Of a stretch of DNA of 53,121 bases, positions 7,870 through 53,121 are shown in pieces. The DNA comes from an uncultured Chloroflexia bacterium. Lineage in GTDB: Bacteria > Chloroflexota > Anaerolineae > B4-G1 > SLSP01. How positions within the stretch are numbered: position 1 is the stretch's first letter; each line of letters starts with the position of its first letter. The DNA lies in NCBI GenBank assembly GCA_963751345.1, contig CAVVUS010000026.1, positions 1 through 53,121 on the forward strand. Reading direction: 5' to 3'. The position numbers and the translations under genes are program-made. A model generated the notes under the pieces. The model made no database searches, was not told the origin of the DNA, and saw nothing but the letters and a program-made list of their open reading frames with translations.

Positions 7870-7897
7870 TTGACACCCTCGCAAGGTTCAGACGAGG

Positions 7898-10282
7898 TCA
7901 GAACACCTCGTGTTCGGTGCGGGCGATGATCTCGTCCTGCAGCGCCCTGCCCAGGTCGCAGAAGTAGTCGCTGTACCCCGCCACGCGCACGATCAGGTTC
8001 CGGTGCGCCTCGGGATCCGCCTGCGCCGCCCGCAGGGTGCTCGCGTCCACCACGTTGAACTGGATGTGGTGCCCGTTCAGGTCGAAGTAGGTCCGAACGA
8101 GGTGGACCAGGTGAGTCAGCCCCTCATCATCGGCGAGCAGCCGCGGCGTGAACTTCTGGTTGAGCAGCGTCCCGCCGGTGCGCACGTGATCCATCTTCGC
8201 CACCGACTTGATCACCGCCGTCGGTCCGGCTCGATCGGCGCCCTGCACGGGTGAGATGCCCTCTGACAGCGGTTTGCCCGCTTGCCGTCCGTCGGGCGTC
8301 GCACCGGTCACCGAGCCGAAGTAGACGTGACAGGTCGTGGGCAACAGGTTGATGTGATACGCGCCGCCCTTGGTGTTGGGGCGACCATCGACAGCGTCGA
8401 AGTAGGCCTCGAAGACCCGCACCATCAGGTCATCCGCACGGTCATCGTCGTTCCCATACCGCGGCGTGCGATTGAGCAGAAGCTGCCGTTCACGCTCACG
8501 CCCCTCGAAGTTAGCTTCCAGCACCGATAGCATGCCATCCATCGATAGCGTCTGGAGATCGTAGACGTGGGCCTTGAGCGCCGAAAGGGCATCCGTCATC
8601 GTGCCCAACCCCACGCCCTGAATATAGCTGGTATTGTAGCGCGCGCCGCCGTCGTGATAGTCCTTGCCGTTGGCAATGCAGTCGTCGATCAGCAGCGAGA
8701 GGAACGGCACCGGCATCTGTCGCGCATAGAGCCGCTCGATGACGTCGTTACCGCGCACCTTCACGTCGACAAAGTGGCGGAGCTGCCGCTCAAAGGCAGC
8801 AAAGAGCTCGTCGAAGGTCGCGAAGCTCCGAGGATCGCCTGTCTGCAAGCCGATCCGCTTGCCCGTTCGAGGATCGACGCCATTGTGCAGCGTGATCTCC
8901 AGCACCTTGGGCATGTTGAAGTAGCCGGTCAGGTTGTAGTTCTCCTTGCCAAACGCGCCGGTCTCCACGCATCCGCTCGTCCCGCCGCACCGCGCATCCA
9001 ATAGACTCTTCCCCTGCCGCAGCAGCTCCTCGATAATCAAGTCGGTGTTGAAGACCGACGGCTGCCCGAAGCCCGTGCGGATGATCTCCGCGGCACGCTT
9101 GATGAACGCGTCCGGGTTCTTCCGGCTCACCTGGATCGACGAACTCGGCTGCAGCAGCCGCATCTCCTCGATCACGTCCAGGAGCAGGAAGGTGACCTCG
9201 TTGACGCCGTCGTCGCCCTCAGGCGTCACGCCCCCGGTGTTGATCTGCGCGAAGTCGGTGTAGGTCCCACTCTCCTCCGCCGTGACCCCGACCTTCGGCG
9301 GCGCCGGCTGGTTGTTGAACTTGATCCAGAAACACTGCAGCAGCTCTTCGGCCGACGCTCGCGTCAGCGTGCCCTCCGCGATGCCACGGGCGTAGAAAGG
9401 ATACAGATGCTGGTCCAGCTTGCCGGGGTTGAACGCGTCCCAGGGGTTGAGCTCCGTGGTCACGCCGAGGTGGACGAACCAGTAGGTCTGCAGCGCCTCC
9501 CAGAAATCCCGCGGCGCGTGCGCGGGCACCCAAGCGCAGACCTCGGCGATCCGCAGCAACTCACCCTTGCGGGCCGGGTCAGGCTCCGTCGGCGGCCAAC
9601 TCCCGCGCCTTTTCCGCGTGTCGTTCCGCGAAGCGAATCACGGCGTCGGCCGCGATGGCCATCGCGTTCAGCTCGTCCTGCTTTGCGGGCGCGTCGGGGT
9701 CGTGCTCGAAGTCCAGCGCGGCGAGGGTGATCGCCACGTCGGCCTTCAGATCGAGCAGCCCCTTGCGGTAGATCTTGTCGTCCAGCGTGGTGTGCCCGGG
9801 CCCACGCTGCTCCATGAACTCGGTGAAGATGCCGGCGTCGTAGGCATCCTTCCAGGCCTCGGTCATCTCCGCGAAGATGCGCTCTCGCATCGTGCGCCCC
9901 TGCCAGAAGGGGATGATTCGCTCGGCGTAGATCGCGCGCGCCTCAGGGCTGACCTTGAAGGGGATCTTCTCACGCGCATCGAGGAGATCCAGGTCCTCCA
10001 GCGTGTGACAGCAAAGCTCGGGAAAGGTGGGGGCCGCTTTCGGCGCGGGCCCCTTCTCGCCGACGATCAGCTCACCGTCGTTGATGCAGATGGTCCGGTG
10101 CTCCATCAGGTAGCGGAAGGCCTCGGCGCGGCCGACCGCGTTCGCGCGCCGCAGAGGTACCGACTCACTTGCTGCTCGTGCACGGCGAAGGCCGTCATCA
10201 GCTCCGCCCGCTCGGTGGAGATGCTCGGCACCGCATCCAGGCTCTCCTGTCGCAACCGCGCCACCCGCTCTGTCATCGCCAT
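7898..10282 (-). CDS. hypD: Glycyl radical enzyme, trans-4-hydroxy-L-proline dehydratase type (split by indels near 10165 and 9580)
   Basis: TEFMEQRGPGH, WDAF.PG.LDQHL, KFNNQPAPPKVG, ESGTYTDF, GGTSGCVETG, LPTTCH.YFG, RVAGYS; these match the C. difficile HypD motifs as I recall them; GGAGG before ATG 10282. Confidence 0.85.
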
Positions 10283-10317
10283 ACGCTCGCCCTCCGGTCC
10301 ATTCGTGATCTGCGCCA

Positions 10318-10326
10318 ATAGTACCA
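10318..10326 (-). promoter_or_regulatory. Extended -10 promoter candidate for hypD
   Basis: TGG-TACTAT on the minus strand, about 35 nt before the start codon. Confidence 0.5.
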
Positions 10327-10372
10327 CAGAACAGCAGTAGCCGCTCTTGGTAGGGTCCTGGTCAGCCCGTCC

Positions 10373-10463
10373 CATAGGCATCAAGCAAAGGAGGCCGGAC
10401 CAGTGCCGGGGACTTCAGCAAAGATCCCCGGCACCATCTTCGCTCGTTAGCTTGATGCCTATG
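10373..10463. other. Nested inverted-repeat element (candidate ncRNA or MITE)
   Basis: Perfect 14-bp outer IR CATAGGCATCAAGC (10373-10386 / 10450-10463) and perfect 10-bp inner IR GTGCCGGGGA (10403-10412 / 10425-10434). Confidence 0.75.
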
Positions 10464-10510
10464 AGTGAGACGCCCGCTGTCCACAGATTGCCGTCGTCGA
10501 CCGACAATCC

Positions 10511-10538
10511 TTGGCACCTCACCGGACCGACGTATACT
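10511..10538 (+). promoter_or_regulatory. Sigma70-type promoter
   Basis: TTGGCA-N16-TATACT, ending 8 nt before ATG 10547. Confidence 0.6.
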
Positions 10539-10546
10539 CTGCCTCG

Positions 10547-11335
10547 ATGGAGAACTCACAGGGGACGCAGAACGAAATCCTCGATCAGCTTCTCACCACG
10601 CCGGCCGGCCTCGCGGTCTGTTGGCTGGGCAACCTGAGCTGGCTGATCCACGGCGCAGGGCAGCTCGTTGCCTTCGACCTCGACCTGGATCACGACCTGC
10701 GCCTCCGCCCCTCCCCTATCCCGACGGAGGAGATCGCGCCGGCGCTGGACGTGCTCTTCATCACCCACGAGCACGGCGATCACTTCAACGCCACGACGGG
10801 ATCCATCCTGGTTGAGCGGTCGGATTGCCTCTTCGTGATCCCGGCCAGTTGCGAGGCGAAGGCGCGCGCCATCGGCGTGCCCGACGCGCGACTCAGGATC
10901 GCGCGTCCACGGGAACCCTTTGACCTGCCCGGCATCCACGTAGAACCGCTGCGGGCGCTCCACGGGGACCGGCATCAGGCGGTCTACCGCCACGCCAACC
11001 TCGACGACTGCGGCTATGTGCTGACACTCGCCGGCCACCGCCTCCTGCAGCCGGGCGATTCGGTACTGCTGCAGGACCACCTGGAGCTGACCGGCATCGA
11101 CGTCCTCTTCGTCTCCCCCACCGACCACAACATGCGCGTCGAGCCGGCCTCGGTCCTGATCGAGGCGCTGCAGCCCAAGGCCATCTTCCCCCAGCACTTC
11201 GGAACGTACCGGGAGACGGGAGACAACGCCTTCTGGACCCACGGCTACCCGGACGAGCTCAAAGCGGCCCTTTCTAAGGTGATGCGGGACCGGTATCATA
11301 AGCTCGAGCAGGGCACGGTCTTCGCCGTCACGTGA
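10547..11335 (+). CDS. MBL-fold metallo-hydrolase (UlaG-like)
   Basis: WLGNLSWLI, THEHGDH, PGDS, PQHFGTY. Confidence 0.85.
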   Translation: MENSQGTQNEILDQLLTTPAGLAVCWLGNLSWLIHGAGQLVAFDLDLDHDLRLRPSPIPTEEIAPALDVLFITHEHGDHFNATTGSILVERSDCLFVIPASCEAKARAIGVPDARLRIARPREPFDLPGIHVEPLRALHGDRHQAVYRHANLDDCGYVLTLAGHRLLQPGDSVLLQDHLELTGIDVLFVSPTDHNMRVEPASVLIEALQPKAIFPQHFGTYRETGDNAFWTHGYPDELKAALSKVMRDRYHKLEQGTVFAVT

Positions 11336-13093: not shown

Positions 13094-13168
13094 TGTCATC
13101 CTGAACGAAGTGAAGGATCTGTGCCTTGCGGAGCCAGACATCCGTCGCCTGACGGACTCAGGATGACA
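13094..13168. repeat. REP-like palindromic element of GTCATCCTGA...TCAGGATGAC type
   Basis: 11-bp terminal IR TGTCATCCTGA / TCAGGATGACA with internal GAACGAAGTGAAGGATCT. Confidence 0.75.
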
Positions 13169-13209
13169 CTTCCCACGAATCAGGTTAACTGACCCATAGG
13201 AGGCCAACC

Positions 13210-51537: not shown

Positions 51538-52320
51538 CTACGGCAGACACCGCTCCCCAATCAGCCTGACCCCGTCGAGCGTCAGCCAGGGATCCACGAT
51601 CGAAAACTGCCCGGTCAAGGGCGCGATGATGTTGGAGAGCCCCCCCGTGGCGACGACCTTGGCCTCGGCCCCATGCGATGGCGTCCCGATCTCGGCCCGG
51701 AAGCGGGCGATCATGCCGTCGACCAGGCCCACGTAGCCCAGCAGCACGCCGGACTGCACCGAGTGGATGGTGTTGGTGCCGATCGCCCTTGGGGGAGCGA
51801 CCAACCTGACCTGCGGCAACTGCGCTGTCTCGCCGGAGAGCGCAGACGCCGCCAGGTTCAGTCCGGGGGCGATGGCAACGCCCAACAGCACGGCATCAGC
51901 GGAGACCGCCGTGAAGGTGGTCGCCGTGCCGAAATCCACGACGATGCACGCATCGCCGATCCGGTCGTGGGCGGCAACGGCGTCGGCGAGGAGATCCGCC
52001 CCGAGCTCGGCGGGGTTGTCGACCGCGAAACCTAACCCTGTCACCACGGTGTGGTTGATCACCAGGGGTGTAACGGGCGTCTCCTCGGCAAGCATCTCCT
52101 CAATGCGCCCGGTCAGCGGCGGCACCACGCTGGCGATCACGATCCGATCGAAGTCCCCCATCCCGAGCCCGGCCTCGCGCAGCAGCGACCGGAAGAGGAC
52201 GCCATACTCGTCCGCCATCTTGTCCCGCACCGTGCGGACCCGCCAGTGATGGCGCCACACCGCCCCATCGTGCACCCCAAAGACCACGTTGGTGTTCCCC
52301 ACATCGACAGCCAAGAGCAT
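51538..52320 (-). CDS. coaX: Type III pantothenate kinase
   Basis: DVGNTN, SVVP, LGAD, VDFGTATT, I.PG, ATGG, LTL.G. Confidence 0.96.
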   Translation of the reverse strand: MLLAVDVGNTNVVFGVHDGAVWRHHWRVRTVRDKMADEYGVLFRSLLREAGLGMGDFDRIVIASVVPPLTGRIEEMLAEETPVTPLVINHTVVTGLGFAVDNPAELGADLLADAVAAHDRIGDACIVVDFGTATTFTAVSADAVLLGVAIAPGLNLAASALSGETAQLPQVRLVAPPRAIGTNTIHSVQSGVLLGYVGLVDGMIARFRAEIGTPSHGAEAKVVATGGLSNIIAPLTGQFSIVDPWLTLDGVRLIGERCLP

Positions 52321-52519
52321 AGATCCCTCCCTGGATAAGCGCCGGATAGGCATGAGTGTAGCCGCATCTTGCGGTGAGGCCAGGGGCGTTCATCGCAGCG
52401 AGCGGGGTGAGCGCAGGTGATGTACGGTTGCCTCGGCCCATGGACGCAGACGGGCCAGCCACAACTCGTTGTGACTGGCCCCCAGTTCACGCCGCGTCCG
52501 GCGGCCTCTCAAGACTGCG

Positions 52520-52961
52520 TCAGCGACCGCCCATCTGGTACAACTGCGTGTGAGCGTCTTCCCGCTGACCGGTGAATCCCCTGTCGCTACGCTCTGGGGA
52601 CATAGCGCCGGTCCGTCGCCATCGTCCCACTGCTCCAGCGTGCCTCCCCGTACGGATAGAGCGCGTACACACCACGCGAGCGCATCTCGCTCACCACGCC
52701 ACCACCGCTGCTGTTCGTGGTCATGCTCGCGCTTCCCAGCTGTCGCGAGGCCGTGGTCCCCGTGGATCCAGCTCACGACGCTCCCTACCCGAATCGCCAC
52801 CCGCTGACTACCCAGGTAATAGTACGTCGTCACCACCCCGGTCGTCAGGTTCTTCTCGTAGTGCGGCCCCACATACACCGTCGTCTGCCCCCCGCCACCT
52901 TCTTCACCAGCGTCCCATCCCCGTCGTAGGTGTAGGTCGCCAGCACCGTGCTCCCCTGCTT
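52520..52961 (-). pseudogene. RHS/YD-repeat core fragment with three short insertions
   Basis: Reconstructed: YTYDGDG.LVKK...YYYLG.QRVA.R...GDH|LGS...R|YPYGE...TDRRY|TGQRED...LYQMGGR*. Confidence 0.88.
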
Positions 52962-53036
52962 GTGTATACATTCGCGCTAGTCAGGTTGTCATCGTCGCAA
53001 CTCGCACCCCGGCTCCTGGGAATTCCAAATCACAAA

Positions 53037-53075
53037 GAGGGCTAGTCGCGATCATGTGATCGGGACTAACCCCTC
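53037..53075. other. Imperfect long hairpin
   Basis: GAGGG.TAGTC.CGATCA / TGATCG.GACTA..CCCTC. Confidence 0.5.
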
Positions 53076-53121
53076 GAAGCCAGGTCCTACACAGAGTTGA
53101 TCTTTGCTCGGACTTGCTAGA

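Follow-up and report, generated by a model that had tools for sequence, protein, structure and literature searches.

Palindromic micro-insertions in a decayed RHS core fragment of an Anaerolineae genome and in related orphan toxin cassettes

Can short insertions that lie exactly at the conserved motifs of a broken RHS toxin gene be explained without a system that targets such genes? The question is raised by an RHS core fragment near the end of the stretch of DNA analysed here (the window), which is one entire contig (53121 nt) of a 5.4-Mb, 49-contig assembly. A reading made from the letters of this DNA alone, hereafter the sequence-only reading, had taken the fragment to be clean RHS core apart from three insertions, each in a conserved motif, and had proposed that such a coincidence reflects targeted micro-insertion, for example the cut-and-repair scars of a silencing system. 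Here, the fragment was compared with an intact core, its insertions were searched for in related genomes and metagenome contigs, and several explanations of their position and persistence were weighed.

A broken RHS core at the end of a contig

According to our analysis, the fragment is an RHS core remnant of 450 bp (positions 52520 to 52970, minus strand, as for all of its parts named below) without the 5' shell and without the 3' toxin tip. The reference for a frameshift-aware alignment was the intact core of an RHS protein of the same genus, encoded by a 2485-aa open frame (G011:C12). Residues 1 to 122 of the 170-residue reference window are covered (score 464), the homology is collinear, and nucleotide identity amounts to 81% over 363 aligned bases. 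Between 52970 and 52520, the core reading is distributed over four frames, and the alignment places five breaks in it, namely, a 1-nt loss, 13 nt, an extra GGT codon, 18 nt, and 28 nt. The loss falls in a run of G at 52888 to 52893 (core residue 19) and takes the reading from frame A to frame B. Segment B, which translates as TTVYVGPHYEKNL...SWIHGDH (52753 to 52886), leads up to insertion 1, the 13 nt at 52740 to 52752, placed after the H of DH at the DH/LGS bond. The following segment C reads LGSASMTTN...ATDRRY (52602 to 52739) and contains insertion 2, 18 nt in frame at the R/YYPYG bond (52662 to 52679). Insertion 3, the 28 nt at 52574 to 52601, stands after the Y of the RY/TGQ bond, and beyond it segment D (TGQREDAHTQLYQMGGR, 52520 to 52573) runs into a stop, where core homology ends as well, its last homologous residues being LYQMGGR. 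The gene that comes next encodes a type III pantothenate kinase (51538 to 52353, minus strand; PF03309, E 1.4e-64), which adjoins the element and lies outside it. No DPxGH core end, C-terminal toxin tip, or immunity gene was found at the remnant locus. Against TIGR03696 the remnant scores 14.1 bits (E 0.30), below the cut-off of 32.5 bits, because the domain is severed at residue 37 and interrupted; its separate pieces give no match, and intact relatives score 72 to 78 bits. The fragment is a remnant of the TIGR03696 family and not a scoring member of it.

The alignment bears out the three discrete insertions at DH/LGS, R/YYPYG, and RY/TGQ that the sequence-only reading had described and corrects that reading in its details. 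Of the limits given there, the lower one at about 52520 holds, and the start moves from 52961 to near 52970. Insertion 2 is present where it had been placed, with its flanking GCGCTC direct repeat, but is 18 nt long and in frame rather than about 19 nt. The three insertions had also been regarded as the only breaks, the 1-nt loss in the G run having been overlooked.

Among public runs (assembled Logan contigs), no run's share of the sampled words exceeds 0.13. Only 52849 to 53121 is covered by contigs identical to the window, and none is identical over 52520 to 52848. A near-identical contig (X3), in which one letter is different and one gap occurs over 150 bases, has an additional G at 52890 that would bring frame A back to frame B. 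In a soil contig that departs from the fragment at 16 letters over 353 bases (X4, record 7), insertion 2 is retained and insertion 1 is longer by 6 bases, which gives a 19-nt form, and two other related contigs have DH/LGS and RF/TGQ junctions without insert. The lesions private to the fragment are insertion 3, which is known from a single assembly, and the loss in the G run. Over 52300 to 53121, no Rfam 15 covariance model matched at E up to 1. The fragment is best read as a fossil orphan cassette of an RHS toxin, in a metagenome-assembled Anaerolineae genome.

Insertion 2 is the sole window insertion that still folds as a hairpin of its own. The region of insertion 1 folds no better than shuffled sequence (z +0.87), and insertion 3, for which a hairpin had also been claimed, shows a modest fold (z -1.7). 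The latter has no relatives among the searched copies and bears only a weak likeness to other inserts. Its reported resemblance to a palindrome at 13094 dissolves, since 735 of 1000 shuffles score equally well; the palindromic element itself (13094 to 13170) is real as an inverted repeat. The 7-nt word common to insertions 1 and 3 does exist and is weakly unusual, 78 of 5000 shuffles reaching the same. The inserts are not genome-wide repeats here: at up to 2 mismatches, insertions 2 and 3 are each present in a single copy in the source genome, the one other exact match to insertion 1 is attributed to chance, and inserts have no 10-nt word in common with the rest of their own loci. The frequent 16-mers of the source genome (G000) belong to other palindromes, in families of 20 to 60 copies each, and to a CRISPR-like repeat, and repeats spaced at about 164 nt form a tandem array at C19:22927-24079.

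Hairpin families hp1 and hp2 in RHS cores

The DH/LGS bond is the site of a hairpin that we call hp1, a perfect palindrome of 17 or 19 nt with a 6- or 7-bp stem and the loop CAGA, located exactly between DH and LGS. Insertion 1 aligns to hp1 with losses; it is a decayed hp1 copy that was not created in the fragment. A DNA search of 41 genomes gave matches in 7, the source genome included, and the DH/LGS site carries hp1 in several copies and is empty in others, among them the intact G011 gene. The carriers are RHS cassettes of two Anaerolineae genera and 20 metagenome contigs. When 145 genomes of the order were scanned, all eight matches with 0 to 1 mismatch immediately preceded the LGS codons in an RHS core and had GDH ahead of them in five cases and, in the other three, only CAY after unrelated sequence; the 12 matches with 2 mismatches lay in unrelated contexts, against 13 for the control. 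The same scan revealed a third stem variant in the second genus. Among 401 genomes of the class, a sample with only 3 of the family, no hp1 was detected beyond the source genome.

In metagenome contigs, 36 distinct matches to the hp1 pattern were found, 20 in RHS context and 16 by chance. The stems are fully complementary in all 20 of the former, which fall into three variants (13, 2, and 5 contigs), and asymmetric in 9 of the 16 chance matches; the search pattern fixed all hairpin positions but two, so that only the symmetry of those two was free and the invariance of hp1 in this set is largely imposed by the pattern. Alignment of 21 hp1 copies gives a helix of 10 pairs, including three flanking pairs, which is 97.5% paired, with one compensatory pair (UA in 11, CG in 5) and with symmetric loss of one base per arm in 5 of the 21. 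Intact hp1 together with its flanking codons folds at z -4.0 to -2.6.

Elsewhere in the source genome, hp1 occurs once, again inside an RHS remnant. This second remnant (G000:C30:230199-230319; L001 8200-8313, minus strand; 112 bp) lies in an intergenic gap and is the only other RHS-like DNA in the genome. It starts with CAT and a perfect 19-nt hp1, continues with TTGGGG..., is missing some 41 nt in the region of YYPYGE, and stops exactly behind RRY, where the neighbouring gene on the opposite strand has its stop codon; an orthologous copy is present in G002:C17. The only other CAGA-loop hairpin of the source genome, at C24:127275, was rejected as an hp1 copy, since its surroundings encode an acidic stretch and its occurrence looks fortuitous. 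Searches with separate left-arm and right-arm patterns, for an hp1 split around a larger element, returned only chance matches beyond the known copies. At two unrelated, non-RHS places (L161 in G077:C175 and L170 in G126:C487), 20 nt consisting of GATCAT and the left half of hp1 are shared before the sequences diverge, an identity longer than the 15 nt required by the search pattern.

Insertion 2 is a member of a second hairpin family, hp2, fixed at R/YYPYG, and likewise was not created in the fragment: an 18-nt insert identical to it is found at the same bond in a copy from another genome. TIGR03696 begins exactly at YYPYG (site 85), where hp2 sits. Several variants of hp2 were identified, with a compensatory change in the stem; in one of them a TAG lies in frame, and another is a tandem pair. 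Among the copies collected by protein homology, hp2 was found in RHS cores only, and it frequently co-occurs with hp1.

All judgeable copies with a hairpin are orphan cassettes truncated at the 5' end. Ahead of hp1, the open frame measures at most 201 aa in the 24 listings with an upstream stop inside the locus, among which some contigs appear twice; eight more run off the contig and are not judgeable. Downstream of hp1, the LGS frame is open for 187 to 340 aa in 7 of 12 listings and passes through the core end into differing C-terminal tips. No confirmed full-length gene with a hairpin was seen among the judgeable listings. In G114:C19, a main gene of 1518 aa has no insert and hp1 lies in a later downstream orphan of the array; the intact 2485-aa gene of G011 has no insert either, and orphans without insert are common. 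The orphans considered here consist of core pieces that lack the 5' part and end in distinct toxin tips, and they follow a full-length gene in arrays; the tips of hairpin-bearing cassettes, as far as homologous ones were compared, are 99.8 to 100% identical. Orphan rhs-CT/rhsI cassettes downstream of main rhs genes are described for Enterobacteriaceae (PMC3967940; see also PMC3150448). Orphan rhs fragments lack translation start signals and are activated by recombination with the main gene in a common region (PMC3967940). The presence of hairpins in orphans only fits a lesion that is tolerated solely in silent copies.

Other peculiarities of RHS loci were observed along the way. An RHS gene at 7893 to 11317 of locus L013 (G011:C26) has an internal loss of approximately residues 341 to 1550, several 5' frame changes, and a further RHS piece after it, and its counterpart in G018 (C146) carries hp1. 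A conserved 189-nt in-frame insertion at the core end, between SIVP and DPxNPQ, which at the protein level resembles an extra segment, occurs in L042 (5265 to 5458 and 6797 to 6990), L075, and L085. AbiEi/AbiEii toxin-antitoxin pairs, assigned by Pfam, adjoin hp1-bearing RHS fragments in L001 (8366 to 10051) and L041 (12171 to 13711). The idea that such a pair and an hp1 fragment form a common mobile unit is unsupported, since the AbiEii proteins of the two loci are not closely related (E 0.069).

Site preference, spread, and competing explanations

An aligner run on 165 distinct core copies yielded 146 inserts of 10 to 70 nt, belonging to 95 families. The recurrent families are a 23-nt insert at site 32; a REP-like 25-nt insert at site 49, present in RHS arrays only in the five genomes scanned; hp1 at site 66; hp2, in its several variants, at site 85; a 19-nt hairpin, also at site 85, whose inner stem and loop are those of hp1 reversed (the inner 10 nt are common to both, in opposite orientation); and a REP-like 24-nt insert at site 118. 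Frame-breaking families are scattered over many sites, with five of them at sites 103 to 106, and a single metagenome cassette (L236) harbours six inserts, including a tandem double hp2. At DH/LGS we also found three clear inserts that are unrelated, of 22 nt (L085), 24 nt (L079), and 47 nt (L073), two of which are REP-like. A 28-nt candidate at the same bond (L121) was discarded, given that its upstream flank is not RHS-like; the candidate more likely represents a 5' boundary. The 24-nt insert of L079 belongs to a repeat present 175 times in its own genome (control 0); small repeat units do land in RHS cores. In that genome (G145), 24-nt units are also seen apparently in frame within coding sequences (e.g., L137 and L139, contigs C120 and C248) and in tandem arrays.

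By a rough estimate of our own, about 40 frame-breaking families over 166 sites would give some 0.24 per site, so that several at a site named beforehand are unlikely by chance, an estimate weakened by the fact that the aligner sets inserts only between codons and does so more sharply beside conserved residues. Since unrelated inserts, two of them REP-like, share DH/LGS, some site preference is likely at this bond and the positions are not those of random decay; in this, the sequence-only reading was right, and the same three sites are indeed struck again in other RHS copies. Its premise of three motifs hit independently overstates the coincidence, because insertions 1 and 2 are inherited members of families. 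Alignment of the cores of relatives returned the expected recurrence at the same sites but, for the most part, not the variable content per site; the content is mostly conserved, whereas cut-and-repair scars would vary. As for the ends of RHS pieces, two orphans with different hp1 stem variants start 3 nt ahead of hp1, the contig 30 remnant ends after RRY, and one orphan starts at T/GQ. These boundaries, at the foot of hp1 and at RRY/TGQ, hint at breakage near those sites.

How the hairpins move can be read from pairs of filled and empty copies. The cores of G018:C6 (filled) and G011:C12 (empty) are 98.4% identical and differ by 7 substitutions in the 93 nt around hp1, the next 1000 nt having only 2 and one indel. 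In L231 and L238, the toxin tips are identical over 208 codons, 100 core codons hold 22 substitutions, and hp2 is present in one copy and absent from the other. No clean insertion or excision, that is, no filled/empty pair with unaltered flanks, was found among the compared pairs, each close pair showing local substitution patches instead. Because filled and empty copies differ by such patches, the hairpins are carried from core to core within tracts of recombination or conversion. This favours homologous recombination over the targeted insertion or excision that had been proposed; the open frames listed beside the arrays did not reveal an enzyme that could belong to an active targeting or silencing system. 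Recombination can copy inserts flanked by the most conserved DNA into many cassettes, unlike inserts in variable stretches, so that motif-adjacent sites become enriched. Such copying accounts for much of the link between inserts and motifs.

The reading that we prefer, with a probability of roughly 0.55, is that palindromic micro-insertions persist and spread passively in silent orphan cassettes. Insertions 1 and 2 would then be copies of two old palindromic micro-insertions, hp1 and hp2, which reside in the core-homology region of silent orphan cassettes of this bacterial family. The origin of each hairpin was probably a single event, or a few, in which a small hairpin-forming sequence was inserted, the presumed source being a REP-like micro-element or a product of replication or repair. 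The former origin is plausible given the 175-copy repeat unit of L079 at DH/LGS, although hp1 and hp2, unlike REP elements, are not dispersed and are confined to RHS cores. As orphan cassettes are untranslated, hairpins would persist there, and as hairpins break the frame, they would not be tolerated in working full-length genes. Their passage from cassette to cassette would take place by homologous recombination or gene conversion through conserved flanks, the step that the data support, and this route would favour inserts beside the most conserved motifs. The stems may stay perfect by templated self-correction of palindromes or by some structural constraint. A hairpin in an orphan would probably shorten the region where crossing over with the main gene can produce a working fusion. 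In the window copy, hp1 would have decayed, and the private 28-nt insertion, the 1-nt loss, and the truncation of both ends would have been added. Some observations sit uneasily with passive spread: L005 and L007, from different cassette subfamilies, have immediate flanks that are only about 64% alike by inspection, and their hp1 copies differ by a symmetric deletion only, a near constancy not predicted by plain neutral descent. Moreover, recombination bias does not explain three unrelated inserts at the DH/LGS bond, the orphans that begin just before hp1 hint at breakage near the hairpin foot, and the reversed inner 10 nt of hp1 in the site-85 insert hints at a recognised hairpin core.

Alternatively, the hairpins might be functional cis elements that lock orphan cassettes, with DNA or RNA structure under selection, whether to block translation of the spare toxin, to limit productive recombination, or to stabilise or process a transcript that feeds the immunity gene. 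This would suit the perfect stems with compensatory variants (20 of 20 metagenome matches in RHS context and the counts in the alignment), the fold that reaches into the flanking codons with z between -4.0 and -2.6, the confinement to orphans whose toxin tip stays open for 187 to 340 aa (7 of 12 listings), the frequent pairing of hp1 with hp2, the position of hp2 exactly at the start of TIGR03696, and the activation of orphans via recombination in the common core (PMC3967940). We nevertheless consider it a tentative and rather unlikely reading: any frameshift would lock a cassette, which makes a conserved hairpin unnecessary, insert-free orphans are common, templated correction can keep palindromes perfect without selection, the truly covarying pairs number one, and the window copy is decayed. 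Improbable, too, in our judgment is that the inserts are ultra-small site-specific mobile elements, or the scars of such elements, which are moved in trans and home to conserved RHS core DNA. The several unrelated inserts at DH/LGS, two of them REP-like, the recurrent families at sites 32, 49, 85, 103 to 106, and 118, the six inserts of L236, the same hp1 in divergent cassette subfamilies, and the very small mobile repeats reportedly present in cyanobacteria can be enlisted for it. Yet the search for a clean filled/empty pair failed among the pairs compared, hp1 and hp2 were not seen outside RHS cores (for hp2, among the copies that protein homology had gathered), the reference core showed, on inspection, no target motif common to the empty sites, the list of open frames beside the arrays contained no identifiable transposase, and the inserts' own loci held no 10-nt source for them. 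Both ideas meet in a bolder one, which we regard as doubtful, namely, that a protein recognises hp1, hp2, and their relatives, which would be hairpins specific to RHS and conserved in structure. They may form a lock-and-key by which spare toxin cassettes are kept silent up to a defined event in which the hairpin is removed or bypassed, or they may be the smallest known homing elements (17 to 25 nt), aimed at the DNA that encodes the conserved motifs in a polymorphic toxin family. Room for protein recognition is left by the reversed hp1 core at site 85, by the orphans starting 3 nt before hp1, and by the unrelated inserts at the same bond.

Two more explanations are far less probable than those above. 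Open frames flank hp1 on both sides, and inserts 13, 17, 19, and 28 nt long would suit a ribosome hop better than one fixed frameshift, so that the hairpins could conceivably be recoding signals which, by hop, frameshift, or RNA cut-and-rejoin, give a full-length protein. Set against this, CAY, the codon ahead of hp1, differs from AGC, the triplet that precedes the landing site, one hp2 variant has an in-frame TAG, some cassettes carry up to six inserts, the region has no Rfam match, and hp1 was never seen in a confirmed full-length gene, which argues against efficient bypass; we consider recoding very improbable. It is equally hard to credit that the window insertions stem from faulty assembly or consensus where coverage is low at the end of a contig, as might be suspected from a fragment that stops 150 nt short of the end of its contig of 53121 nt, is matched by no identical contig over 52520 to 52848, and has a G-run loss absent from a near-identical contig. 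Insertions 1 and 2 recur in independent assemblies of many projects and are also found in the soil contig with 16 other letters over 353 bases, and the doubt is thereby limited to insertion 3 and the G-run loss.

Meaning and comparison with known systems

Orphan RHS cassettes are regarded as a store of toxin and immunity genes on which recombination with the main gene can draw to activate them. Conserved frame-breaking hairpins in the recombination region would decide which crossovers yield a working toxin and would mark an undescribed layer in the keeping or silencing of toxin reserves. Under passive spread, very short palindromes can persist and spread in one gene family by recombination alone, and their persistence bears on how "pseudogenes" in metagenome-assembled genomes are read. 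If an enzyme does recognise the hairpins, it would represent a new site-specific activity on toxin genes. In the main texts of the literature searched, no report of hairpin insertions in RHS cores was found.

Translational bypass, known from phage T4 gene 60 and from mitochondrial byps, involves matching take-off and landing codons in expressed full-length genes. Its elements are, like those studied here, short hairpin-forming inserts in otherwise intact coding sequence, but at hp1 the take-off CAY and the landing AGC are mismatched, and there is no confirmed full-length hp1 gene. Small dispersed repeats are units of about 21 to 27 nt at many unrelated places, which can sit in genes and in other repeats, and Elhai is said to have described very small mobile repeats in cyanobacteria in 2008. 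The hairpins resemble these cyanobacterial units, being mobile-looking, about two dozen bases long, and possible inside genes, and their size fits. However, the cyanobacterial repeats are multi-copy and genome-wide, whereas hp1 and hp2 belong to one gene family; hp1, the 25-nt insert at site 49, and hp2, the last as far as tested, were found in RHS cores only, and the host phylum differs.

REP and REPIN sequences with their RAYT transposases are likewise short GC-rich palindromes that fold as hairpins (PMC3116915), and the insert of L079 at DH/LGS is a unit of a 175-copy repeat. In contrast, hp1 and hp2 occur in one to three copies per genome, all within RHS cores, and lie in coding sequence, not between genes; at 17 to 19 nt they are shorter than REPIN doublets, and the window inserts do not have many dispersed copies in the same genome. 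With the orphan rhs-CT/rhsI cassettes (PMC3967940), the cassettes described here have in common 5'-truncated cores, distinct tips, an arrangement in arrays, silence, core homology to the main gene, and cores recombined between copies. The window copy differs from them in being without a tip and without an immunity gene, and what sets the present cassettes apart is that they carry conserved, frame-breaking hairpins at fixed sites of the core.
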